Part shown: positions 2,323-51,182 of the stretch, piece by piece
Layout: each line of letters begins with the position of its first letter
How positions within the stretch are numbered: the stretch's first letter is position 1
Origin: a virus
Lineage: Duplodnaviria > Caudoviricetes
DNA length: 51,182 nt
Virus record (IMG/VR): IMGVR_UViG_3300020045_011216
Location: 1-51,182 of that record
Strand: one strand, 5' to 3'
Notes under the pieces: generated by a model
Databases searched by the model: none
What the model was told of the DNA's origin: nothing
What the model saw: only the letters and a program-made list of their open reading frames with translations
Position numbers and translations under genes: made by a program

Positions 2323-4851
2323 TTAGTTTAGAACCTTACTTGCCTTGATGAAGTCTTCTGTTTCCATATAATCCAAGAACAAACTAGCCCCGGGCTCAAG
2401 ATAAAACCCGGCTGCAAGAATTGGATTGACGTAGTTCATGAACGTGTTGTTGTACTGAGTTGGACCCATGTCGATGAAGTTGTACTCGAACTTGGATGAG
2501 ATACTATCCTTGCTCTCGATCGGTCTGGACACAAGCCGTAGAGAGCCTACAGTCGAATAATAGTCAATCGTGTGTCTACCCCTCACCTCGCTATGAGCGT
2601 GGCCTGTAAGGTCTGGAATAGTGCTCCCTGCGGGGTTTGTAGTAGGGATGAAAACCCCGGCATTTCGAGTAACAGGATAAGCTCTTCCTGACGAGAAGTG
2701 AATAAGTTCGTCGGGTGCAGCTGCTCCTACACCTAGGACTTGTTTATAAAAAGTATCCGCTGAAGCTTTGGCTGCAGGGTTCTGAAGTAATGTTGAAGAT
2801 ACATTTGAGAAAGGCGTTGTGCTGTAATCAGCGACGAGATTATAAACCTCTTCGTCAATCTCAGAATTAACCAAGTTCAGTGCAGTTTGCAAAAACGGCG
2901 GCGAGGGTGGCGTATAGTAGTTAGATAGCTCAGCGTATGTCATTGCAGCAGCCATACCAATCGTAGTCCCAATACTGCGTGACGTGATCGTATGGTTGAC
3001 GGAAATACACATGCCGTGGAAGCTGGGATGGTTTGGACTGTCGTCAATCACATCCATTGGATAGCCAGGTATGATATAAGGATTGAAAGCTGCCTCAATG
3101 GTCCCTGCTCTGGACCCTGCAATTCTCTTGGAGAACTCGTAGTCTACTGTAGAAAACAGTAGTCTTTCGTGAGGGAGAATGTCACCATTTCTAGGATCAT
3201 AGGGGTTTAACTTGGCCTTGTTCAAATTAGGCTTGGTCGTCATGACGCTATCGGCTTGATTAATATCCGTGCCGTTACGCTGTTGCCACTCGATATTCAA
3301 TGCCATCATATCGTTATAGGCGTCAGTTCCTCTTAGCGGATAGTTCTCTGACTTATCACCGGACGCAGAAGAATTACTGGTTAATGTAGCAAGCCACCAA
3401 GGAAACCCAGTTGCCTCAGGGCGAATACCTTTGCCTTGCTCGTACTTACCAGGAATAGCATAGGAATAACTCTTGACAGAGGCCAGGCTCAGGTTGTCAG
3501 GTGTCTCATTTTTAGCTAAAAGAGCGTTATACGCAACAGCTTCCCTGATTGTGTGCGGACCACGATAGTTGACGCTGTAAGCTTGGGATCCGCCTTGCCC
3601 GTGAAGACCGTCGTGAGAAGCTGTTACCCGAGAAGGCACGCCGGCTTCTTCTTGGTCGATTTGAATCGATTCGTACATTCTCGGCAAAAGCACATTGCAG
3701 ATGGGTGCGTAGTAGAACGGTAGCTGAGGCTTGATAACCGTTTCAATCGTAGACTTGACTACGCCACTTTTGCTAAAGTCATCTGTAAAAACGTCAGGAT
3801 CTACGTTGATTTCCGCAGGGCTTGCAAGTGTAAGAATTTCGTAATTGATACTACCGTAGAACGCTTCCAGCATCTGGGGGAAAGACGTAAGCTCTCCTGA
3901 GAACCCAATCTGGTTAGCAATAGTCTCTACTCCAAGCTGTCGTTGAATAGCGGAAGTTATAGACAAGCTAAAAATAGGTGGCGTCATTACAGAAACGTCT
4001 TTCAAGTCCTGTTCTTTACAGTAAGGACCTTTGGCGTCTTGTACTTTGTTCTCTAAGAGAGGATGTCCACTCATGCGAGAGAACATTCCCAGTGAATCTT
4101 CGATCAGTGGAATGTACATCGTAGCCAGTGCTACGTTGTGTGTTTTGTCTGCGTACACGTCTTTGCGCAATTGATTCCAAAGGTTGACAGATGCAGAGGG
4201 GAGTCCCGTCAGTCTTTTGGAGAATATTGAGAGAGATGGGTCGATCTTGTTTGTAGGCGCAGCTAAGAGCTTCTCCGAAGTAGACGAGGACGAAATGATC
4301 TCTTCACCTGTTGCCACTCCAGTAATACCGTTCAAGGCGTGAACAATCATGAACTTGGAGTTCAATGCCTTAGGCTTGTAGACTGAGTTTGACAAGTTCG
4401 GGTCTACAAAGCTAGGATTCACAGGAGAAGCCCACCCTGTGAAATCCAGGGTCAACTGATCTGCGAGCATATTCTTGTGCTCACAATGGAAGTTAATAGA
4501 GGATGATCCCTGTCCTCTACGTGAGCGGTGGTATCGAGTAGAAGTGACAACGCCCCAGAAGAGAAGCCTATCTCCTCCATAGTTATCATCTTTGTAAAAA
4601 ATATGAACCTTCGGAGAGTATCCACGGAGAATATCCATAAGCCCACTTGAAGGTGGGATTTGAATATCTGCACTTGGCCTGCGGCCATATGCCTGAGCGA
4701 TAGAAATAGCCTCGAAAGGTACCTGGACCCCTTCGATGTATAGCTTTACGTCTGGCGCAATGACATCCGTGTTGTTCTTTGCCGCAGGGACTTTTGGGGC
4801 CGTTGTGCCAGAATATGTCGTCTTAGGTGCAAATTTACGGAATTGAGCCAT
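2323..4851 (-). CDS. Baseplate hub / tail protein (gp27/gpD-like)
   Basis: 842 aa; 'KLYIEGVQVPF...ADIQIPP' N-terminus and 'FNPYIIPGYP...CISVNHTIT' hub-like C-terminal motif; downstream of tape measure. Confidence 0.55.
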   Translation of the reverse strand: MAQFRKFAPKTTYSGTTAPKVPAAKNNTDVIAPDVKLYIEGVQVPFEAISIAQAYGRRPSADIQIPPSSGLMDILRGYSPKVHIFYKDDNYGGDRLLFWGVVTSTRYHRSRRGQGSSSINFHCEHKNMLADQLTLDFTGWASPVNPSFVDPNLSNSVYKPKALNSKFMIVHALNGITGVATGEEIISSSSTSEKLLAAPTNKIDPSLSIFSKRLTGLPSASVNLWNQLRKDVYADKTHNVALATMYIPLIEDSLGMFSRMSGHPLLENKVQDAKGPYCKEQDLKDVSVMTPPIFSLSITSAIQRQLGVETIANQIGFSGELTSFPQMLEAFYGSINYEILTLASPAEINVDPDVFTDDFSKSGVVKSTIETVIKPQLPFYYAPICNVLLPRMYESIQIDQEEAGVPSRVTASHDGLHGQGGSQAYSVNYRGPHTIREAVAYNALLAKNETPDNLSLASVKSYSYAIPGKYEQGKGIRPEATGFPWWLATLTSNSSASGDKSENYPLRGTDAYNDMMALNIEWQQRNGTDINQADSVMTTKPNLNKAKLNPYDPRNGDILPHERLLFSTVDYEFSKRIAGSRAGTIEAAFNPYIIPGYPMDVIDDSPNHPSFHGMCISVNHTITSRSIGTTIGMAAAMTYAELSNYYTPPSPPFLQTALNLVNSEIDEEVYNLVADYSTTPFSNVSSTLLQNPAAKASADTFYKQVLGVGAAAPDELIHFSSGRAYPVTRNAGVFIPTTNPAGSTIPDLTGHAHSEVRGRHTIDYYSTVGSLRLVSRPIESKDSISSKFEYNFIDMGPTQYNNTFMNYVNPILAAGFYLEPGASLFLDYMETEDFIKASKVLN

Positions 4852-4865
4852 GAGAAAAATATTAT

Positions 4866-5726
4866 TTAGTTAACTGCGTTTGAGAAAATAGAGTCTACTG
4901 CAATAGCAAGTAAAGCCTTTTCCAGGATCGAGGTTGTGTTTGGAAAGTATAGCTTCATGTCTTCCGGAACCATTTCCATACCTGAAATTTTATCAATTAT
5001 AACATCGATTTCAGAAACAGGGATTACAGCAGATAATAAACTTGGCTTCAACGTAAGTGGGCGAATAGGTAAAGGTTTCAGACCTAAAAGAGAGCCTCCG
5101 TAAGTCTTTGCTAGCCAGTAAAAGAATGGTGCGCGTGATAGAACGTTATACTTGACTACGATATTCGAGTCTAGTGTAACAGGTGTTGCCAGAGTAAGAA
5201 TATCCCCAAATACAGAATAATCAGATGCAGGGAGAACCACTCCATCTAGTACAACAGTGATCGTATCGTATATATCAGAAGTGAACGACATTTGTGCAGA
5301 AGAGAATCCTGCCCGAATAGATAGCACTTCTGATTGCATTTGAAACTGAGGTGGGATCTGTACGTAATCTCCAATGTTAGGATATGTTCTATTTGGAAGA
5401 GATGCATTAAAACATTCCTGGCATACGCCGTCTTTTGAGATGCAGGAGCTTAGGCTTCTTATTTGAACCTCGTATATACCCTGAGAAAGTTGAGATTCAA
5501 TGAATGCTCTATTGATAACATCACCTGTTACAACAGACTTGCTACCTTCTATTTCAAAGTTCAAAGCATGCACTTCACCCAGCATTGTCCCGCAGTCGTA
5601 TTCAACTACCCTAACGAAGGGGGAGAATACCGCATTAGCTACATTGACTAGCGTTTGGTTAGAAGATGGGATCGCATCAAATACGTTTTCGAAAATAAGC
5701 GTACCCGAATAAGTTCTACTGGACAT
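4866..5726 (-). CDS. Protein with an RNA polymerase beta' second zinc-binding module fused to a beta-rich domain
   Basis: 'RVVEYDCGT...IRSLSSCISKDGVCQECF...NIGDYV' parallels RpoC 'EDDCGT...VRSVVSC...GVCAHCY...NKGEAIG'; no NADFDGD motif. Confidence 0.65.
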   Translation of the reverse strand: MSSRTYSGTLIFENVFDAIPSSNQTLVNVANAVFSPFVRVVEYDCGTMLGEVHALNFEIEGSKSVVTGDVINRAFIESQLSQGIYEVQIRSLSSCISKDGVCQECFNASLPNRTYPNIGDYVQIPPQFQMQSEVLSIRAGFSSAQMSFTSDIYDTITVVLDGVVLPASDYSVFGDILTLATPVTLDSNIVVKYNVLSRAPFFYWLAKTYGGSLLGLKPLPIRPLTLKPSLLSAVIPVSEIDVIIDKISGMEMVPEDMKLYFPNTTSILEKALLAIAVDSIFSNAVN

Positions 5727-17008: not shown

Positions 17009-18151
17009 ATGACTTTCAAAGTTATCGCCCCGTTTGTCAGCTGTGTTGTTAATGAAATGTTCGACACTCCGAAGGATACTCTTTCAGAGTTTGACGAAGC
17101 CGTCAACGCAGGCTATCCTAACATCTACATGCTGACTTCAAACGGCATCATTCACCACCGATCATTCCGACCTGGAAAAGAAGGTAAACCACGATTCATT
17201 CGCATACCCGTTAAGGAGATCCCCGGTTTGAAGCTTAAAAACGTGGCGGCCAAGGTCAGCTTCTTGCCCGAAGGAAAGATCCCTGTTCGACTTCTCACTG
17301 AAATCAAAGCTTTCTTCAAGAAAGTCATTGAGAAGCGTGGAACGGCAGTAGAAGCAATGATTTGGATTCTATGGGACGAATCAAAGGGGTATCATCTCTT
17401 CGTCCCTAATCAGATCGTTTCTCACGCCTCTGCTCGCTATGACTGGAGCACTGTCCCTCTTGGCTCAAGCATCATCGTAGACATTCACTCTCACGCAGAC
17501 TTCAGCGCCTTCTTCAGTGGCACTGACAATGCAGATGACAAGGGGTCTGTCAGGTATAGTGGTGTCATTGGCCACAACAATACTGACAACCAGGACATGG
17601 TCTGGCGGTTTAACCACCCTGGCGGCACCATTGAAGCAAAGTTGGAAGACTTGTTTGAAACTCCTGTTGCTCAGCAACCCGAAGTTCCAGACTCTTGGCT
17701 TGATCGAGTACAAGCTCCGCCGCCTCAGGTGGCAGGGGCGGGAGTAGGAGCAGGAAAAGGCTCTCATTACGCAAGGTATATGAAAGGTCGGTACGTCGAT
17801 CCCGATGAAGGTTCTTCACAGGGTGCACCCGGATATCAGTCAGAGTTCTTCAATAAGCCTAAAGGTGGAGGGAATGAGAAGGGCTTACACTCTCCGTTCT
17901 CGGATGACTCAGTAGAGCGGGGACAGTTTGGCAAGATTGACAGAGGTCCCTGGTCGAAAACTTCGTCGCATAAAGGGATGAACTATAACCCTAGAACGCC
18001 GAGCCCTGCTGACCGTGGTCTTGGCATTGTTGTGTTTGGCGATGATGGTCTTCCTGATTCAGAAAACGATGCATTTGAGCAGGAAGGGGCGCTGAAAAAA
18101 AAAGCGCGCCGGGGTCGGAAGACCCTGGTAGCTGGGCGAACGAATGGCTGA
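17009..18151 (+). CDS. JAB/MPN metallo-isopeptidase (PRTRC protein A-like) with a long disordered tail
   Basis: 'VEAM' Glu and 'DIHSHADFSAFFSGTDNADD' JAMM HxH-x7-S-x2-D motif. Confidence 0.88.
   Translation: MTFKVIAPFVSCVVNEMFDTPKDTLSEFDEAVNAGYPNIYMLTSNGIIHHRSFRPGKEGKPRFIRIPVKEIPGLKLKNVAAKVSFLPEGKIPVRLLTEIKAFFKKVIEKRGTAVEAMIWILWDESKGYHLFVPNQIVSHASARYDWSTVPLGSSIIVDIHSHADFSAFFSGTDNADDKGSVRYSGVIGHNNTDNQDMVWRFNHPGGTIEAKLEDLFETPVAQQPEVPDSWLDRVQAPPPQVAGAGVGAGKGSHYARYMKGRYVDPDEGSSQGAPGYQSEFFNKPKGGGNEKGLHSPFSDDSVERGQFGKIDRGPWSKTSSHKGMNYNPRTPSPADRGLGIVVFGDDGLPDSENDAFEQEGALKKKARRGRKTLVAGRTNG
18081..18128 (+). other. Putative -1 frameshift cassette: SD-like AGGAAGGGG, A9 run, GNRA stem-loop
   Basis: CTG AAA AAA AAA GCG, 5-nt spacer, then CCGGGGTC-GGAA-GACCCTGG; the -1 frame is open from 18079 to 18471. 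Confidence 0.65.
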
Positions 18152-18207: not shown

Positions 18208-18471
18208 ATGATGGAAGAGCCCTTCTCAGAAAAGGGTTTGTCCGGAACATTCAATGACGACGTTCTGGACTACGGCCCAGATGTTGCGTTCGCTGCTCAA
18301 GACATTGAAATGACGATTGATCAGTTGAAGGGCTCAGACGATATTCTTGAAAGGATTATTTCTAAGTCTTTTGACATGATGGATCAAGAAGAACGCTTCG
18401 ATGTATTCATCGAAATGTATCAAATGCTTTCTCGAAAGCAGCAAGACCAAATCGCTACAAACGGTTTCTAA
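18208..18471 (+). CDS. Acidic helical domain, probably the C-terminus of a frameshifted long JAB isoform
   Basis: No clear RBS; the frame is open back through the A9 run. Confidence 0.6.
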   Translation: MMEEPFSEKGLSGTFNDDVLDYGPDVAFAAQDIEMTIDQLKGSDDILERIISKSFDMMDQEERFDVFIEMYQMLSRKQQDQIATNGF

Positions 18472-18520
18472 ACACAGGAGATGCGGCGGGGCTGCGTCCC
18501 CGCTAAATCTAGGATTAAAC

Positions 18521-19690
18521 ATGCTCAAATACACACCTCACTTTCTTCCTTCGGCAATCTACCTTGTCGGCTGTGGAGGTACAGGATCTCGCCTTGTCCC
18601 TATGATGACTCAACTTGTTCGCACAGTTCTTCGTGAGTTCAATCCTGCGGGCTGGATGACTGAACTTCCTATTTTCCTGATCGATGATGATGTTGTGGAA
18701 GAGAAAAATCTTCTACGTCAAAACTTCATTTCCCAAGATGTTGGCAAGAGCAAGGCTGTTGTATTAGCTGAGCGTTACCAGCGTGCGATGGGTATTCCGA
18801 TCCACCCCATCGTGAAAAGACTGAACAGTTACGATAGTATAACGAGTATTGCCGACAATGCTGTATCCTACTCGAAATGCCCCCCTGCTAACAATATCAT
18901 TCTAATCATGGCAGTAGACTCTCCGCAAGCTCGGCGAGAGATCCTCCACGTGTTCTTTAAGACGCGTGCCAATGATGTGTTCGTGATCGATGCAGGTAAT
19001 GAGGATAATTTCGGCCAAGTCAAGTTCTTCACGAATACGGTGATAAGCTTTAGGAGCCCTCATATGATATCTGATAACGAATACGCTGCTAGGATTAGGG
19101 ATATCAAGGCAGCTATGCCTAAGATGACTCCGGAACCGATGCCTGTGAACTATATCCCCTATAGCCCTTCTTACTATGATAATCTGGGTACTACAGTAGC
19201 TGAGAGAAGTTGTGCGGACCTAGATCAGACACTGGCAATCAACGCATTGATGGCAACGATCATGTGCGGTGTGTTGCAAAACTTCTTGTACATCAAGCCA
19301 TTTATGTACAATCAGATCAACTACAGTTTGAATGGCGCCGTTTCAACGGTATTTAACTCTGGTGCAAACTGGTTCTCTCAAGAGAATTTTGCAAAGGTAA
19401 ATTTTCGCAATGATAATGTAGTTTCCAAATACGCAACCTACTCTATTAGACCTCAGGAGTACACAAGTGACTATGAAACAAGCAGTACTTACAACGAGTT
19501 TGTACGTTACCTTGAATTCAACAAAGAAACCCTAGGACGAATGGGGTTAGATCTGTGTATGAAAACGGGGGAAGTTACTCCCAAGAAGGCGCCTGTAATA
19601 GAAGATATTCCAGTTGCAAGATCACCTAAAAAGCGTCAAAAGAAGGTAGAGGCTGTTGTAATGGAGCATAACGAAGATATTGACTTCTAA
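18521..19690 (+). CDS. E1-like ThiF family adenylyltransferase (PRTRC ThiF-like)
   Basis: 'LVGCGGTGS', 'DDDVVEEKNLLRQNF...GKSKA', 'IDAGNE', 'RSCAD' Cys; AGGA RBS before ATG 18521. Confidence 0.9.
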   Translation: MLKYTPHFLPSAIYLVGCGGTGSRLVPMMTQLVRTVLREFNPAGWMTELPIFLIDDDVVEEKNLLRQNFISQDVGKSKAVVLAERYQRAMGIPIHPIVKRLNSYDSITSIADNAVSYSKCPPANNIILIMAVDSPQARREILHVFFKTRANDVFVIDAGNEDNFGQVKFFTNTVISFRSPHMISDNEYAARIRDIKAAMPKMTPEPMPVNYIPYSPSYYDNLGTTVAERSCADLDQTLAINALMATIMCGVLQNFLYIKPFMYNQINYSLNGAVSTVFNSGANWFSQENFAKVNFRNDNVVSKYATYSIRPQEYTSDYETSSTYNEFVRYLEFNKETLGRMGLDLCMKTGEVTPKKAPVIEDIPVARSPKKRQKKVEAVVMEHNEDIDF

Positions 19691-22919: not shown

Positions 22920-23015
22920 CCTCTTGAAGGCCTCTGGAAGGCGCTAGGAGCGATTTAAACGGGTCTTGGCTACACTACCTTACCCTATCGCTTTAAACGC
23001 CTTAAAACGCTTCCT
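22920..23015 (+). repeat. Degenerate internal copy of the inner part of the terminal repeat
   Basis: CCTCT.GAAGGCCTCTGGAAGGC...TGGCTACACT...CTTAAAACGCTTCCT aligns with 321-410 and with the right-end flank. Confidence 0.8.
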
Positions 23016-28750: not shown

Positions 28751-29055
28751 CACAACCAAATATCTGGAAACAATCTTTCGAAGCTCACATGGTCTTAGAA
28801 GGAAGTTGGGGATCGCGTAAGCTTGGAAAGTATTCCTCAACTATGGAATTGCATCTCAATTCCGATACAGGGAAAGGTTTCATTGAATGGGATATCCCTG
28901 AAATCGAAACGACTGAACATATTGGACTTTGGTTTTCCCGCAATAACTATGGCGGACTAATTCTTTCCGATTACGACGGAGTGTTTAGTCTGCCAACTCA
29001 GGCTATTAGTATGCTTGAAGAAGCTGGTGTTTTTGTAGATGAGGAATTTCACTGA
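28747..29055 (+). CDS. Hypothetical protein
   Basis: 102 aa, GAGGGG RBS, coupled on both sides. Confidence 0.65.
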   Translation: MTQPNIWKQSFEAHMVLEGSWGSRKLGKYSSTMELHLNSDTGKGFIEWDIPEIETTEHIGLWFSRNNYGGLILSDYDGVFSLPTQAISMLEEAGVFVDEEFH

Positions 29056-29849
29056 TGAGTGACGATCTTGGCGACCGAATGAAGGGTTATGAGTCCAAGT
29101 ACACAAGCATCAAGCTTGATAGTACGCAGCCTATTATGGCAAGAATGGACGGGAGATCTTTTCATTCATTTACACAGGGCATGTTTCGACCCTTTGATAT
29201 GCGCATGGTACAGGCCATGACAAATACAACGATAAAGCTAGTCAAAGAGACTAATGCGTTAATAGGGTATTGCCAGTCTGATGAGATCTCTTTGATGTGG
29301 ATGCCAAAACATGAAGAGGAGCAAGTATGGTTTGACGGCAAGCTTCTGAAAATGACATCTCAGCTCGGTGCATTGACTTCTCTCCTGTTCTATCGGGAAG
29401 TAGAAGCCCTTATGCCAGAGTACGCAGGCAGGCTTCCAACGTTCGATGCCCGAGTATGGAATGTCCCAGACAAGGTTGAGGCCATGAACACTTTTCTATG
29501 GAGGGAGATTGACGCCAGGAAGAACAGTGTTTCCATGCTTGCATATTCTGAGTTCAGTCACAAATCCCTACTTAATGTTCGAACCGAAGAGAGGATTCAA
29601 AGGCTTAAAGACATCGGTATCGATTGGCATAATTACCCAGATTGTACAAAATACGGTACCTATGTCGGAAGAGTTGACCTAAGCGGGAAATTCACAAAAG
29701 AAGAGATCGAGAGCTTGCCCCTTAAGCACCTGGCCAGAACTGATCCGGATTTGATTGTCAAGAGATCTATCGTAAAAGAGCTTGCAGGAAGCTTGCTAGA
29801 AAAAGAATCTTCTGCTGAAAAGGTGAAATTCATCTTTCGAGAAGAGTAA
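29055..29849 (+). CDS. tRNA(His) guanylyltransferase Thg1-like protein (3'-5' polymerase)
   Basis: 'RMKGYE...ARMDGRSFHSFT...YCQSDEISL...PTFDARV'. Confidence 0.92.
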   Translation: MSDDLGDRMKGYESKYTSIKLDSTQPIMARMDGRSFHSFTQGMFRPFDMRMVQAMTNTTIKLVKETNALIGYCQSDEISLMWMPKHEEEQVWFDGKLLKMTSQLGALTSLLFYREVEALMPEYAGRLPTFDARVWNVPDKVEAMNTFLWREIDARKNSVSMLAYSEFSHKSLLNVRTEERIQRLKDIGIDWHNYPDCTKYGTYVGRVDLSGKFTKEEIESLPLKHLARTDPDLIVKRSIVKELAGSLLEKESSAEKVKFIFREE

Positions 29850-29874
29850 TTACAATAATTATTCTCGTATCCTT

Positions 29875-29892
29875 TGGTATAAGAGTAGTATG
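29875..29892 (+). promoter_or_regulatory. Conserved promoter motif, copy 3 (RT locus)
   Basis: TGGTATAAGAGTAGTATG. Confidence 0.75.
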
Positions 29893-30026
29893 CAAAGACT
29901 AAACCTAGTCTTGCTTGGTGCCGGCCATTCCCGGTGATTTTTTTATAGGTTCCATTTGACCAATAACCATACTGCCCCAAGTGGTAACTACTATAAAGAA
30001 AACAACAGAGAGTTTCACTTATCTTT

Positions 30027-30176
30027 ATGTTCGCAAAAATCATGCTATTCGTCGTCCGTACAAAGCGCGCCCTGACCGTCATCATGACTGTCCTGGACAT
30101 TGTAGCGGGCGTCATGGAGGCTGCAAAGGCTTCCGGCTATAACTTCCCGAGTCAAAAGACTCCGGTCGTCGCGTAA
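30027..30176 (+). CDS. Small hydrophobic protein (49 aa) not in the ORF track
   Basis: MFAKIMLFVVRTKRALTVIMTVLDIVAGVMEAAKASGYNFPSQKTPVVA; C-ending codon bias like neighbouring early genes. Confidence 0.5.
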   Translation: MFAKIMLFVVRTKRALTVIMTVLDIVAGVMEAAKASGYNFPSQKTPVVA

Positions 30177-30180
30177 CGTA

Positions 30181-30813
30181 GAGGGGTGGGTTTGGGAGAA
30201 GTCGAGTGCTCAATTTCCTAGTAGAGAAAGACTATGTCAACAACTCCACCGCCCCTGGATCTTATTCCAGTCACTGCGTCGGGTTCTGCCGTTACGGCTA
30301 ACCTGACTGCGCAGATGATGCCACCTTTGCCTGCACCCGTGCCATCTGCACGGCGGAGAGCTAGGCCGGCACCCGTACAAGTAGTTCCGACAAATAATGA
30401 CGAACTTCAATCGGAAGAGATTATTTTGGAAGATTTAGTGGACGCACTGACTCTGACAAATGAAATCTTTCCACTGCTCAGCCCTGCAACGGATTTTCTA
30501 GGCTTGGCACGCTCTTTACGGAACGTAGACTTTGAGGCAGCGGCCTCCGATATCCAAAGTATCGCTACGGCTCCACCTTCGCTTGAATCCATCCAGAGTA
30601 CTAGCTCTGCGACAAGCGAAGATCGTTCTTTAAACACGGCCCCTGAAGTTGCTGTGGACCCCGTAGGCCGTACACCTGAAATGTCTCTAGGATCGAGTAG
30701 CTCTCCTAGTTCAAACGATACTGAGTCGAGCAGCTCCTCAGTCGTTGCAGATCCATGGGCGGGGCACGATAGTCCTTATGCGTTGGGAGTACCTCCGGAA
30801 AACCTAGGTTTTC
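30181..30813 (+). ncRNA. Candidate structured RNA (msr/msd-like RT template), largely inside the 379-aa ORF
   Basis: Near-continuous hairpins, including a recurring TCGAG(Y/YA)GCTC core with different closing stems; boundaries uncertain. Confidence 0.4.
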
Positions 30814-31373
30814 ATGCGTATCCTGAAAACTTTGAAATCCCTACTGAACTTCTTAGGAGGATCAAGAAGAAGAAAGTAGTCCCGAACTCCGATAAATTAT
30901 CGCGGAAGAAAGACTACTATATTGTCCCTTGGCTGGGAAAGTTCCATTACTACAAAATTCAGCCCGTAGTCGAACGCAACGCGTCCCTTTACGAATTCAC
31001 GGTCAAACCCGACACGCGCAAAGAAGGCTTTGTGGCAATCGGAAAAGATCTTTATTATGTAACGTTCAAAGACCTGATTCGTGGAGTAATCCGCAAAAGT
31101 CGGAAATTAGAAATCAAATCTGGTTCAACCTATGCAGACCTCCTCGATTATGGAAACGAACAACCTGCCAAATCCAAGCCTAAGTCCAAGCGAGCCGGAG
31201 CCACAAACACGGTTCTTATTGAACAAGGTATCCCTGAAACAACCATTCAACCTGAAGACCAATCAAGACTTATCGCAGACTTTGGATTGGACCTCATCAA
31301 AAGCGTTGACTTGGCTAGCCAGATCCAAGAACGAGCATTACACGCCTTTATTCTTGAAGAAGAAGAGTGGTAA
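30234..31373 (+). CDS. RT-associated hypothetical protein (low-complexity N-half, basic/aromatic globular middle)
   Basis: 379-aa open frame; last 242 nt overlap the RT in another frame. Confidence 0.6.
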   Translation: MSTTPPPLDLIPVTASGSAVTANLTAQMMPPLPAPVPSARRRARPAPVQVVPTNNDELQSEEIILEDLVDALTLTNEIFPLLSPATDFLGLARSLRNVDFEAAASDIQSIATAPPSLESIQSTSSATSEDRSLNTAPEVAVDPVGRTPEMSLGSSSSPSSNDTESSSSSVVADPWAGHDSPYALGVPPENLGFHAYPENFEIPTELLRRIKKKKVVPNSDKLSRKKDYYIVPWLGKFHYYKIQPVVERNASLYEFTVKPDTRKEGFVAIGKDLYYVTFKDLIRGVIRKSRKLEIKSGSTYADLLDYGNEQPAKSKPKSKRAGATNTVLIEQGIPETTIQPEDQSRLIADFGLDLIKSVDLASQIQERALHAFILEEEEW

Positions 31374-32238
31374 AATTCGGAAGCTGTATAATCCGGATGC
31401 AGTCATGCGAGTCATGCAGTACAAGATTCTAAATCAAGTACTGGAAAACTTTGAAATCCCGGAGTATATCTGGGGTTTTGAGAGAGGTAAGTCTATTCCT
31501 GAAATGGCGAAAATCCACGTAGGAAAAACGATCGTCATCAGCTTGGATATTGAAGACTTCTTTACCAGCATTCACGAAAGTGGCATTCGTGCCATTCTCA
31601 TTGAATCTGGGATCGAAGAAGCTCCTGCAAGAAGTTTGAGCGAGCTAATGACCTATACGCATTTTGTTCCACAGGGTGCGTTAACCTCCCCTAAGATCAG
31701 CAACATCGTTGTTGCAGCTACGTTTGGAGAAGAGGTAAAGGTCTTCTGTGAAAACGTTGGGCTTACACTTTCTATCTTTGCTGATGACATCACAGTGTCT
31801 ACTGATAAAGTCTTTGAAACTCGTGAAGAGCAAAAAGAGTTCATCCAAGATGCTGTCGTGGAAATCTCGAAGTCAATCCGAAAGTACGGATTCTCTATCA
31901 ATCATAAAAAGACGAAAGTCATGTTTCCTCACCAACGAATGTGGGTAACGGGTTGCGTCACTAACGTCAAGGTTTCACTACGAAAAACAGAGCGGCAACG
32001 GCTACGAGCAATCGTTCATAACACTGAGAAGAACGGTCTTGAAGAAGAAGCTTCCAAGATGGAGCTAACTCCTCAGAAGTTTGCATCAGTTGTGACTGGG
32101 AGGCTGAACTGGTACGAACAGCTGGATCCTCGACTAGGGGGTCCGCTGAAAGAAAAGTTCAAGACTCTAGTAAAACAAGAAAAAAGCATTGACGCAGACT
32201 TAGTGTTTGCCTCAGTAGACAGCCTATACGCAGGCTAA
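31132..32238 (+). CDS. Retron-type reverse transcriptase
   Basis: 'KKKSGKIR', region X-like 'MAKIH', 'LDIEDFFTSI', 'PQGALTSPKISN', 'FADDIT', region Y 'WVTG'; start at 31132 or 31150. Confidence 0.9.
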   Translation: MQTSSIMETNNLPNPSLSPSEPEPQTRFLLNKVSLKQPFNLKTNQDLSQTLDWTSSKALTWLARSKNEHYTPLFLKKKSGKIRKLYNPDAVMRVMQYKILNQVLENFEIPEYIWGFERGKSIPEMAKIHVGKTIVISLDIEDFFTSIHESGIRAILIESGIEEAPARSLSELMTYTHFVPQGALTSPKISNIVVAATFGEEVKVFCENVGLTLSIFADDITVSTDKVFETREEQKEFIQDAVVEISKSIRKYGFSINHKKTKVMFPHQRMWVTGCVTNVKVSLRKTERQRLRAIVHNTEKNGLEEEASKMELTPQKFASVVTGRLNWYEQLDPRLGGPLKEKFKTLVKQEKSIDADLVFASVDSLYAG

Positions 32239-32243
32239 AAAGG

Positions 32244-32269
32244 AAACCGAGGTTACACTCGGTTTTTTT
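32244..32269 (+). terminator. Intrinsic terminator after the RT
   Basis: AAACCGAG-gttaca-CTCGGTTT plus T-run. Confidence 0.85.
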
Positions 32270-32292
32270 AGATTCAATAAGGAGTTGTAATT

Positions 32293-32310
32293 TGGTATAA
32301 GTATAGTACA
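32293..32310 (+). promoter_or_regulatory. Conserved promoter motif, copy 4
   Basis: TGGTATAAGTATAGTACA. Confidence 0.8.
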
Positions 32311-32356: not shown

Positions 32357-34378
32357 ATGGAATTCAAGACTTTCAAGACCGCCGTTGCCAAGCAATTCGA
32401 ACTGATGGCAAAGCACGACCTCTTCCGTAGTGCCGTCAGTAAGGACGACATGTGGAATACCTATCTCAGCTCGTTCCCGGAAGGCACGAATCCGATCTAC
32501 AAGACTCGTACGGAACATGACTGCAACTGCTGTAAGCAATTCGTACGGTCTGTCGGAGATGTCGTCGCAATCATCGACGGCAAGATCGTCTCCCTCTGGG
32601 ATGGCGTCGTCAAGGATAAGGACTACCAAGTCGTCTCCAACGCCCTTTCCGCCCTTGTCAAGGCCCATCCGATCGAAGACACCTTTCTTCACTTCGAGCG
32701 CAAAGCCGGCACTGATCGCACCCTCGTCAACGCCCTGGATGGCGTGATCTCGTGGGACCACTTCTTCATCAACATCCCTGCCAAGTTCCACAAACCTGGC
32801 AAGGACATCGCAAGCGCTCTCAGCGAAACCCGGGCACACCACGATGTGTTCCTGCGGAGCCTCCAAACGATTACTTCGGAAGCCGTCGACACTGTTCTGG
32901 AACTGATCGCCCAGAACGGCCTGTACCGTGGCCAGGAGCACAAGGCTACGCTAACCGCATTCAAGCAGGCTCAAACGGCCTACAACAAGCTCAACGAGGC
33001 TGGTAAGGGTGTGTTTGCTTGGGGCAAGGCGTCGTCTCTGCCTGGCGCAGTCACCAAGATCCGCAACACCTCCATTGGCACCCTGCTCGTGGACCTATCG
33101 GAAGGCAAGGACCTGGAAAAGGCAGTCAAGGCTTTTGAGTCCATGGTCGCCCCGACCAACTACAAGCGTCCGACTGCGATTGTCACCAAGTCCATGATCG
33201 AGGCAGCAAAGACAAAGATCGCTGAACTCGGCCTGGGTTCAGCACTGGAGCGTCGCTACGCAACCATCGACGACATCAGCATCAACAACATTCTGTACGC
33301 CAACCGAAATGCTCGCAAGAGCATGAACGCTGACGTGTTCGATGAATTGATGTCAAAGGCAAGCGTGAAGACGCAATCCTTGAGCAAGGTCGAAGACGTG
33401 TCGATCGACAAGTTCCTCGCTGAGATCCTGCCGAAAGCAGAGTCGATCGAGGTCCTGGTCGAGAACAAACACGTCCCTCATCTGGTGTCTCTGGTTGCTC
33501 CTGCCGACGCAACGGCGAATCGCCTGTTCAAATGGGGCAACCCGTTCAGCTGGTCCTATAACGGTGACGTTACGGACTCGATCAAAGAACGGGTGAAGGC
33601 GGCTGGAGGCAACGTCACTGGAGATCTGTGCTGCCGTCTGGCATGGTTCAACCACGACGATCTGGACTTCCACATGATCGAACCGACAGGGAACGAGATC
33701 GACTTCCGGAACAAGGGCATCAGCGGCTGCGGTGGCAAGCTCGACGTTGACATGAATGCAGGCATGGGTACGACACGAGAGCCGGTAGAGAACATCTTCT
33801 ACGGTGACAAGAAGAAGATGAAGGAGGGCATGTACTATCTGAATGTGAATCAATGGTCCAAGCGGGAAACGAAGGACGTTGGCTTTGAAGTCGAAATGGA
33901 CTTCATGGGCACCGTCACGAAGTTCTCACACCCGGCCGCCGTCCCTCAAGGCAGCACCGTCACCGTCGTCGAGTTCCGCTATTCGCACAAGGATGGTATC
34001 ACCATTCTCAAGTCCCTGCCGGCAACGACCTCCGGGAAGGGCAAAGAAGTCTGGGGTATCACCACTCAGACTTTTCAGCCCGTCAACGTCGTCATGCTCA
34101 GCCCGAACTACTGGGACGACAAGCCTGTCGGCAACAAGCATCTGTTCTTCATGCTGGAAGGCTGCAAGAACGACGCAGAAGCACGTGGTTTCTACAACGA
34201 GTTCTTGACGGAGGAGTTGACCGCCCACCGCAAGGTGATTGAAATGGTCGGGGCCAAGATGCGTACGGAAAAGTCCGAGCAGCAGTTGTCCGGCCTTGGG
34301 TTTTCTTCGACCCAGCACGGCAATTTGACATGCCGCGTGAAGGGAAGTTTCTCCCGTGTCATCAACGTAGTTTTCTAA
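32357..34378 (+). CDS. Large hypothetical protein with a YfaP/DUF2135-like beta-sandwich segment
   Basis: 673 aa; 'HDCNCC' metal motif; 'DDLDFHMIEPTG...LDVDMN...PVENIF'. Confidence 0.7.
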   Translation: MEFKTFKTAVAKQFELMAKHDLFRSAVSKDDMWNTYLSSFPEGTNPIYKTRTEHDCNCCKQFVRSVGDVVAIIDGKIVSLWDGVVKDKDYQVVSNALSALVKAHPIEDTFLHFERKAGTDRTLVNALDGVISWDHFFINIPAKFHKPGKDIASALSETRAHHDVFLRSLQTITSEAVDTVLELIAQNGLYRGQEHKATLTAFKQAQTAYNKLNEAGKGVFAWGKASSLPGAVTKIRNTSIGTLLVDLSEGKDLEKAVKAFESMVAPTNYKRPTAIVTKSMIEAAKTKIAELGLGSALERRYATIDDISINNILYANRNARKSMNADVFDELMSKASVKTQSLSKVEDVSIDKFLAEILPKAESIEVLVENKHVPHLVSLVAPADATANRLFKWGNPFSWSYNGDVTDSIKERVKAAGGNVTGDLCCRLAWFNHDDLDFHMIEPTGNEIDFRNKGISGCGGKLDVDMNAGMGTTREPVENIFYGDKKKMKEGMYYLNVNQWSKRETKDVGFEVEMDFMGTVTKFSHPAAVPQGSTVTVVEFRYSHKDGITILKSLPATTSGKGKEVWGITTQTFQPVNVVMLSPNYWDDKPVGNKHLFFMLEGCKNDAEARGFYNEFLTEELTAHRKVIEMVGAKMRTEKSEQQLSGLGFSSTQHGNLTCRVKGSFSRVINVVF

Positions 34379-50772: not shown

Positions 50773-51182
50773 GTTTTAAGCCATTTAAAACCCTAACCCA
50801 AGGCCAGTGTAGCCACACCCATTTAAAACAGCTCTAATGGCCTTCCAGAGGCCTTCTAGAGGAAGCCTGGGGTAAGGCGGAAGGAGCCCTACAGCAACCA
50901 TACCGCCGATCTGTCCTGGGATGGCTTTGGGACTCAAAACCGGACAAGAAGCCATCCTCGTTTTCGGTTTTCGGACAAAATGGACGGAAAGTAGACAGGT
51001 GTCCTAAAACTTTTTAGAAACTGGACAAGCCTTTTCCCTGTGAAATCAAGCACTTAAGGCCGTTTGTCCAATTGTCCTAAAATTTTTCAGAAAAACATAT
51101 ACAGCTTTAGGAAAAGTCACTTCAACTTGCAGCAACACTAGGGAGCGTCTGTATTATAAATATAAATTTTAAAAAGTAAGTA
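50773..51182 (-). repeat. Right terminal inverted repeat (410 bp)
   Basis: Reverse complement of 1-410. Confidence 0.97.

Follow-up and report, generated by a model that had tools for sequence, protein, structure and literature searches.

Type VI retrons are among the described systems closest to the locus analysed here. The accessible part of a report on them (10.64898/2026.04.27.721009) gives their gene order as small protein, helix-turn-helix (HTH) protein and reverse transcriptase (RT), with the accessory gene partly overlapping the RT gene, e.g. in Retron-Sen3. According to the same text, a conserved non-coding RNA (ncRNA) is found within about 280 nt upstream of the small-protein gene, and a coding sequence, that of the small protein, lies within the wider RNA scaffold. 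A phage-borne comparison is offered by Staphylococcus jumbo phage MarsHill, whose gp206 is a retron-like RT; the accessible part of its description (10.1101/2020.12.14.422802) goes no further than hypothesising an ncRNA in an adjacent non-coding stretch.

Both defence systems and genome-editing tools are being sought among retron-type RTs, and putting them to use requires knowledge of the template RNA. We analysed the genome of a Caudoviricetes phage, an IMG/VR record of the complete class with 51,182 bp, which in its full length is the window referred to below. An earlier note on this DNA had proposed that 30181-30813, in the 5' half of the gene that partners an RT, is dense structured RNA used twice, being translated and serving as template/primer RNA of the RT.

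Comparison with described retrons

The gene order around the RT is promoter, small ORF, partner, overlapping retron-clade RT and terminator:

29055-29849, + strand: Thg1-like tRNA-His guanylyltransferase gene (Pfam 2e-25, phrog_4717 9e-74), directly upstream of the operon
29875-29883, + strand: TGGTATAAG, promoter-like motif of the extended -10 type, likely start of the RT operon transcript
29919-29945, + strand: putative terminator-like hairpin with T run, just 3' of the promoter motif (pattern scan)
30027-30176, + strand: small ORF, 49 aa, first gene of the module
30183-30190 and 30247-30256, + strand: G-rich leader GGGGUGGG, predicted to pair with CCACCGCCCC just 3' of the partner start codon
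30234-31373, + strand: partner ORF, 379 aa; the flagged interval 30181-30813 is its 5' half
31132-32238, + strand: RT ORF, 368 aa, in the +1 frame relative to the partner
31132-31373, + strand: overlap of partner 3' end and RT 5' end, 242 nt; both products are conserved across it
32244-32272, + strand: intrinsic terminator-like hairpin AAACCGAG/CTCGGTTT with T run (fold and sequence)

The RT matches Pfam RVT_1 (3e-23), and its catalytic motif FADD is intact in the translation; WVTG and MAKIH sit where we take the retron motifs VTG and NAxxH to be expected. Among the PADLOC models, RT_III-A was best (9e-60), with many other retron RT models close behind and RT_VI at 3e-49. In NCBIfam, the retron models St85, Ec67 and TIR reached about 1e-48 versus 1e-12 for the group II intron RT, all of them below the curated cut-offs. 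Every profile library used places the RT in the retron clade. Its identity to the RTs of a cultured-phage collection is at most 31%. Neither the small ORF nor the partner has a family match in Pfam, PADLOC, PHROGs or NCBIfam, and tblastn of the partner against cultured phages gave no match. Compared with retrons in general, we found no msr/msd with a1/a2 repeats here, and neither accessory protein falls into a described family.

As in type VI retrons, the window and all related loci described below encode a small protein, an accessory protein and an RT, and the accessory gene overlaps the RT gene. However, the accessory gene here does not encode a Cro/C1 HTH protein (Pfam, AlphaFold, PDB); its product is beta-rich and opens with a long disordered half. 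Furthermore, the leader from promoter motif to small ORF measures about 135 nt in the window and about 50-60 nt in two related loci, L002 and L003, too little for the ncRNA found within about 280 nt upstream in type VI; RT_VI is not the best RT model; and the module resides in phage genomes, whereas type VI retrons are found in bacterial defence loci. MarsHill, as far as its accessible description goes, shares with the window a phage-encoded retron-like RT. According to that text its RT has a fused N-terminal domain and 1.2 kb of non-coding region upstream, whereas the RT here is overlapped by a partner gene, with hardly any non-coding sequence nearby.

A search of the literature at the level of titles and abstract openings found no description of this three-gene phage module. 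The sequences point to a phage-borne family of retron-clade RTs in which the three-gene layout is fixed and a classical msr/msd would find hardly any non-coding space. The module may be a retron variant, marked by a conserved small ORF, a partner that has no fold match in the PDB and a long gene overlap.

In the window, TGGTATAAG occurs in four exact copies (14681, 23043, 29875 and 32293), all on the + strand and ahead of genes, versus about 0.4 expected by chance (own estimate); the copy at 32293 is the next one after the operon terminator. In the related loci, the motif stands upstream of the RT module or of neighbouring genes. Its recurrence ahead of genes in related phage contigs is why we read it as a promoter. 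The motif is followed by (a/t)a.agta, has many sites in L002-L010 and apparently serves this phage group as its promoter. The terminator hairpin of the operon (32244-32265) was given by the pattern scan on the - strand only. No Thg1-like gene was seen beside the RT module in the related loci.

Related loci

Searches with partner or RT alignments identified eight related viral loci (six different contigs), whereas the partner and RT of the window as single queries found none. All eight carry the module of small ORF, partner and overlapping RT. The overlap is always in the +1 frame and comprises 206-368 nt, and a small ORF of 42-49 aa with the pattern M..K[ILV][LMI]... occupies the same place in 6/6 different loci:

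L002: small ORF 370-507; partner/RT overlap 844-1091
L003: small ORF 4625-4762; partner/RT overlap 5263-5555
L004: small ORF 716-844; partner/RT overlap 1202-1407
L006: small ORF 848-976
L009: small ORF 2466-2600; partner/RT overlap 2950-3317

The related partners are 166-237 aa long. They keep the core and the acidic tail of the window's partner, and the long front half is absent in all eight loci, although these have the same RT module. This makes the front half a lineage-specific extension without which the RT of this family works, and it cannot be the template of the family.

Within the overlap, one frame encodes an acidic ...EEW/EWEIS tail and the other PF.[IV].TNQ.L...W; in L009 and L010, the overlap is expanded to low-complexity sequence in both frames. 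In 6/8 related loci, no more than a few kb separate the RT module from a contig end (e.g. the end region 1-60 of L002). In L009 and L010 the module adjoins an AT-rich tract bordered by numerous TGGACAC repeats (L009 1700-2360), which looks origin- or terminal-like.

A further relative was found in a search of sequencing runs, in the DNA run X1 (share 0.06); no RNA run was among the matches listed. The X1 relative aligned to 29800-30182 with 29 differences and 4 gaps and to 30198-30356 with 14 differences, and its contig diverges after 30356, the next 53 nt being unlike the window. At 80% likeness X1 leaves 30409-30843 uncovered, a gap that we do not count as evidence. In the small ORF, 6 codon changes are synonymous and 4 conservative; this comparison of small ORF and leader covers the listed differences only, with 57 others left out.

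The partner protein

In an exhaustive profile search, the partner had 84 representative homologues, and the majority match residues ~200-379 only. Homologues matching from residue 1-2 onwards are P0002 (49% identical), P0005 and P0006 only, and P0004 opens with the same short N-terminal motif in the alignment; these four front-half homologues are known from Logan assemblies only. An AlphaFold model of the partner, built on the 84-row alignment, gave the following parts:

30234-30830, + strand: disordered Ser/Pro/Ala-rich front half, lineage-specific (residues 1-200, pLDDT 44-61)
30861-31148, + strand: folded beta-rich core (residues ~210-305, pLDDT 92-98)

In the same model, residues 350-376 form an acidic C-terminal helix. 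The partner's conserved and functional portions are this helix and the beta-rich core, of which residues 223-304 are 77% identical to P0002. Comparison of the fold with the PDB gave no match below E 0.5, and the ESM Atlas gave no usable lead on it. A predicted complex of partner and RT scored 0.27 against a mark of 0.32, which counts as evidence neither way.

The peptide encoded by the flagged interval is rich in Ser, Pro and Ala (29, 24 and 22 of 193 residues) and the frame stays open (379 codons), both as described in the earlier note. Its further description as unconstrained fits the neighbouring disordered parts, which are 22% and 38% identical to P0002, but not residues 113-177. With 71% identity this stretch is conserved nearly like the core, which is unusual for a disordered Ser-rich sequence. 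The peptide motifs [LI]ES[IQ] and GxSxSP of this region are also retained by more distant homologues, so the conservation there fits selection on the protein as well. Apart from residues 113-177 and an N-terminal MxTTPPxLE motif, the front half evolves fast, in line with the divergence of the X1 contig after 30356.

Inverted repeats in the 5' half of the partner gene

All seven stems that had been listed for 30181-30813 could be located:

30255-30270: CTGGA/TCCAG
30288-30298: GCCGT/ACGGC, at most three pairs possible because of the 1-nt loop
30337-30353: CCGTGC/GCACGG
30428-30472: further listed stem
30577-30621, + strand: 9-bp stem CTTCGCTTG/CAAGCGAAG enclosing CAGAG/CTCTG, the best single hairpin
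30636-30671: ACGGCC/GGCCGT
30798-30813, strand-neutral: 16-bp perfect palindrome GAAAACCTAGGTTTTC

The stem GGAAGATTT/AAATCTTTCC pairs only with a bulge. About 0.8 palindromes of 16 bp would be expected by chance in 51 kb (own estimate).

Counting perfect Watson-Crick inverted repeats with arms of at least 6 nt and loops of 3-40 nt, we found 13 in 30181-30813, versus a mean of 4.6 in dinucleotide shuffles (0/500 reached 13). In frame we counted 12, as against 4.2 in codon-order permutations (0/500) and 4.8 in synonymous permutations (1/500; short repeats about 2.7x commoner). Among 506 sliding windows of 633 nt (mean 5.7, sd 2.4), the top two start at 30301 (16 repeats) and 30201 (14 repeats). 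Neither codon content nor protein sequence explains what is the highest density of perfect inverted repeats of at least 6 bp in the genome. The repeat-rich zone comprises about 30201-31000, with 4-6 repeats per 200 nt versus a genome mean of 1.9. The excess fades at other arm thresholds (at least 5 nt, p 0.09; at least 8 nt, p 0.27), and stems of at least 7 with G-U pairs allowed show no excess on either strand.

Folding energy

The earlier note had suggested comparing the fold with codon-preserving shuffles, and here the interval does better than its synonymous permutations. The minimum free energy (MFE) of the sense strand of 30181-30813 is -216 kcal/mol versus -198 to -199 kcal/mol for the permutations, i.e. 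about 17 kcal/mol lower (z -2.65, 1/150 as good; z -2.80, 1/120). The antisense strand does not differ from them (z -0.45; 41/120 as good). However, RT coding segments reach z -2.68 (31465-32043) and -3.04 (31660-32238) in the same test; of 14 other gene segments, just two come close, namely 2323-4851 (z -2.39) and the RT (z -3.00). Since the RT segments score similarly or lower, the interval does not exceed the RT ORF in structure.

Local folding of the interval is ordinary for this genome. The 200-nt windows inside it have z -2.58, -1.34, -0.80, -1.87 and +1.11, versus a genome mean of -0.45 (sd 1.21, n=476), and the run of six 200-nt windows at the interval falls between the 14th and 32nd percentile. 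With dinucleotide shuffles of 633-nt windows, the interval scored -1.76, while 7/25 others were at or below -2.33; a separate run with 20 shuffles gave z -2.85.

Thus, "dense structured RNA" is borne out by the repeat count and by the sense-strand MFE and is contradicted by the local 200-nt z, by the G-U stems and by the RT ORF, which does equally well or better. The hairpin excess of the sense strand is real but modest, and it is common to the RT ORF. A hairpin count above that of shuffles is not sufficient for a template, because the RT ORF also beats its shuffles and because the relatives do without the interval.

The lowest 200-nt folding z of the genome is found at 32001-32300 (-4.84 for 32101-32300, -3.94 for 32001-32200), which spans the 3' end of the RT gene, an imperfect hairpin of about 110 nt and the terminator.

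Base pairs in a front-half homologue

We tested pairs against the P0002 protein, i.e. one protein-only homologue, via the nucleotides that its codons allow. In the hairpin at 30577-30621, two compensatory changes are forced (30579/30619 and 30582/30616) and no pair is broken: S116P with E129G converts U-A into C-G, and L117I with S128I converts C-G into A-U. The stems at 30311-30349 and 30875-30918 have one forced compensation each, and those at 30636-30671, 30687-30709 and 30720-30742 are still possible. The conserved island of residues 113-177 coincides with four successive hairpins (30570-30750), all of which can form in P0002, and this would fit an RNA that is kept as a template or scaffold. 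Against such a role, the stems at 30268-30309, 30337-30353, 30385-30416, 30392-30426 and 30430-30469 are broken in P0002. The 16-bp palindrome cannot form there either (three pairs broken), and neither can most stems in the poorly conserved parts, including residues ~50-105.

As a null for the native MFE pairs, we then took the MFE pairs of 300 synonymous permutations. In the block of aa 105-193, four pairs are compensated versus 1.0 expected (p 0.017, P0002 protein only), and seven are broken versus 8.9 expected (p 0.15). The block of aa 1-57 is not significant, and the C-terminal half of the partner gives no signal. Nor does the proportion of broken pairs fall significantly below the null (p 0.13-0.38), which again counts against a template. 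Because they come from one protein-only homologue and from several blocks and statistics, we take the compensated pairs as a hint only.

A metagenome scan with the partner alignment found no DNA of a front-half homologue, and a degenerate DNA pattern for YYVT..DL.RG..RK had no match in metagenome, viral or genome contigs. A looser version of this pattern gave four genome loci, all of them chance matches according to tblastn.

Search for a template elsewhere in the module

In Rfam scans, no family, retron ncRNA included, reached its gathering threshold. Canonical a1/a2 repeats had already escaped the earlier note, and we likewise found none above chance. The best long-range inverted repeat (30269-30280 / 30441-30452, 12 nt, 92%) is at about chance level by our own estimate, and one of its central pairs breaks in P0002 according to our own codon reading.

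An ncRNA in the leader or in the small ORF was considered and is disfavoured: the changes in X1 are coding-like and break 8/10 affected predicted pairs, among the listed differences also both affected pairs of the leader hairpin. The small ORF of the window folds with z -0.8, and those of L002, L003 and L009 are likewise without signal. In L004, L005 and L006, the small-ORF RNA forms a hairpin of about 90 nt (z -3.6 and -2.5), and L006 keeps 7/10 varied pairs of this hairpin, one of them via compensation. The module has no structured element at a fixed place; the z-profiles of L002, L003, L004 and L009 peak differently.

No template for the RT was located in the window. A diversity-generating retroelement was rejected because blastn of 30234-30813 and the leader against the window matched only these sequences themselves, leaving no second copy that could form a template/variable repeat pair, and it is also disfavoured by the retron models being the best matches of the RT.

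Explanations for the interval

On balance, we favour the reading that 30181-30813 is ordinary coding sequence for a lineage-specific disordered N-terminal extension, with modest mRNA structure. The front half would be a disordered Ser/Pro/Ala-rich extension of the partner, about 200 aa in length, in a three-gene phage operon, and the mRNA structure would overlie a weakly constrained coding sequence. The hairpin excess would then be a feature of the operon mRNA, concerned with its stability or with translation control, rather than the dedicated template of the RT; we read it as such because the RT ORF shares the hairpin and folding excess. As to the purpose of the mRNA structure, we infer that it is of this kind and that the template lies elsewhere or is not a dedicated RNA in cis. 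If there is no dedicated template, the RT may work unlike known retrons. The repeat density, the restriction of the MFE excess to the sense strand, the conservation of residues 113-177 and the compensated pairs run counter to a plain coding sequence. The same goes for the small number of other gene segments with a similar z (2/14, one being the RT) and for the lack of any other template site among those searched, the leader and small ORF having changed in X1 like plain coding sequence.

It is possible, if rather unlikely, that the structure is cis-regulatory, the leader/start pairing and the hairpins gating translation of the partner, and of the RT via the overlap, or blocking decay. The predicted pairing of 30183-30190 with 30247-30256 (30177-30320 folds with z -2.23; 4/200 shuffles were as good) shuts in both the AUG and the ribosome site and would have a regulatory role. 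Sense-specific stability that reaches the RT ORF fits as well, and so does a hairpin between small ORF and partner start in each related locus. However, these hairpins differ among the loci in sequence and position, and the folding z of the spacer region in the module is mixed (+1.1 to -2.6).

We find it harder to believe that the repeats are a mutational by-product, generated with the low complexity by template switching or slippage under weak protein constraint and having no RNA function. The repeat-rich zone does stop where the conserved core of the partner starts, and the other repeat-rich windows are non-coding or terminal (starts 1, 101 and 201; leader window 29801). The expanded low-complexity segments in the partner/RT overlap of L009 and L010 would also fit. 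But DNA palindromes should stabilise both strands, whereas the sense strand alone beats the null, and the forced compensatory changes fit poorly.

The dual use proposed in the earlier note, in which the hairpins at ~30250-30930 are the template/primer or a recognition scaffold of the RT and are also translated as a tolerant disordered peptide, we regard as improbable. What stood of it is that the interval beats synonymous shuffles, together with a weak hint of compensation; for a template role we obtained no positive support. The genome-highest density of short inverted repeats, the sense-strand specificity of the MFE excess, the two forced pairs of 30577-30621 and the surplus in block 105-193 speak for it, as does the fact that the Rfam scan, the leader and the small ORF offered no other ncRNA site. 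There is a precedent in type VI retrons, where, in the accessible part of the report, the small-protein gene lies inside the RNA scaffold (10.64898/2026.04.27.721009). Against these points stand the absence of the front half in 8/8 related loci, stems that P0002 cannot form, a broken-pair fraction near the null, the missing a1/a2 pair and retron Rfam match, an equally structured RT ORF, and a covariation test based on one protein-only homologue with several blocks and statistics. Similarly slim is the chance that the partner gene of this phage lineage has taken up the substrate RNA of the RT, in which case the hairpins at ~30250-30930, chiefly the four at 30570-30750 that are still possible in P0002, would be its template or scaffold. 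The same holds for the broader idea that this RT family uses its own compact and highly structured operon mRNA in cis and has no separate msr/msd gene. A template inside coding sequence would, if true, be a new way to pack a retron.

Further features of the phage genome

The genome ends in inverted terminal repeats of 410 bp (1-410 and 50773-51182). They contain repeated motifs of the GGACA type, and a partial copy, 77% identical, is present at 22920-23008. Few of the large proteins have a PHROG or Pfam family match, and a search of the cultured-phage collection found no close relative of this phage.

Two adjacent genes form a phage-borne ubiquitin-like conjugation pair: 17009-18151 has a prokaryotic JAB domain (2e-9), and 18401-19690 has a ThiF/E1-like domain (2e-11). 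The region around them, 17.7-18.5 kb, is the second most structured zone of the genome (folding z to -4.1). Downstream of the RT operon, 32357-34378 encodes a 673-aa protein of phrog_1735 (2e-282), which is common in unrelated phages of Caulobacter, Serratia, Cronobacter and Vibrio. The G+C content of this gene (0.52-0.59) is well above that of its neighbours (0.42-0.45), which suggests a recent acquisition.
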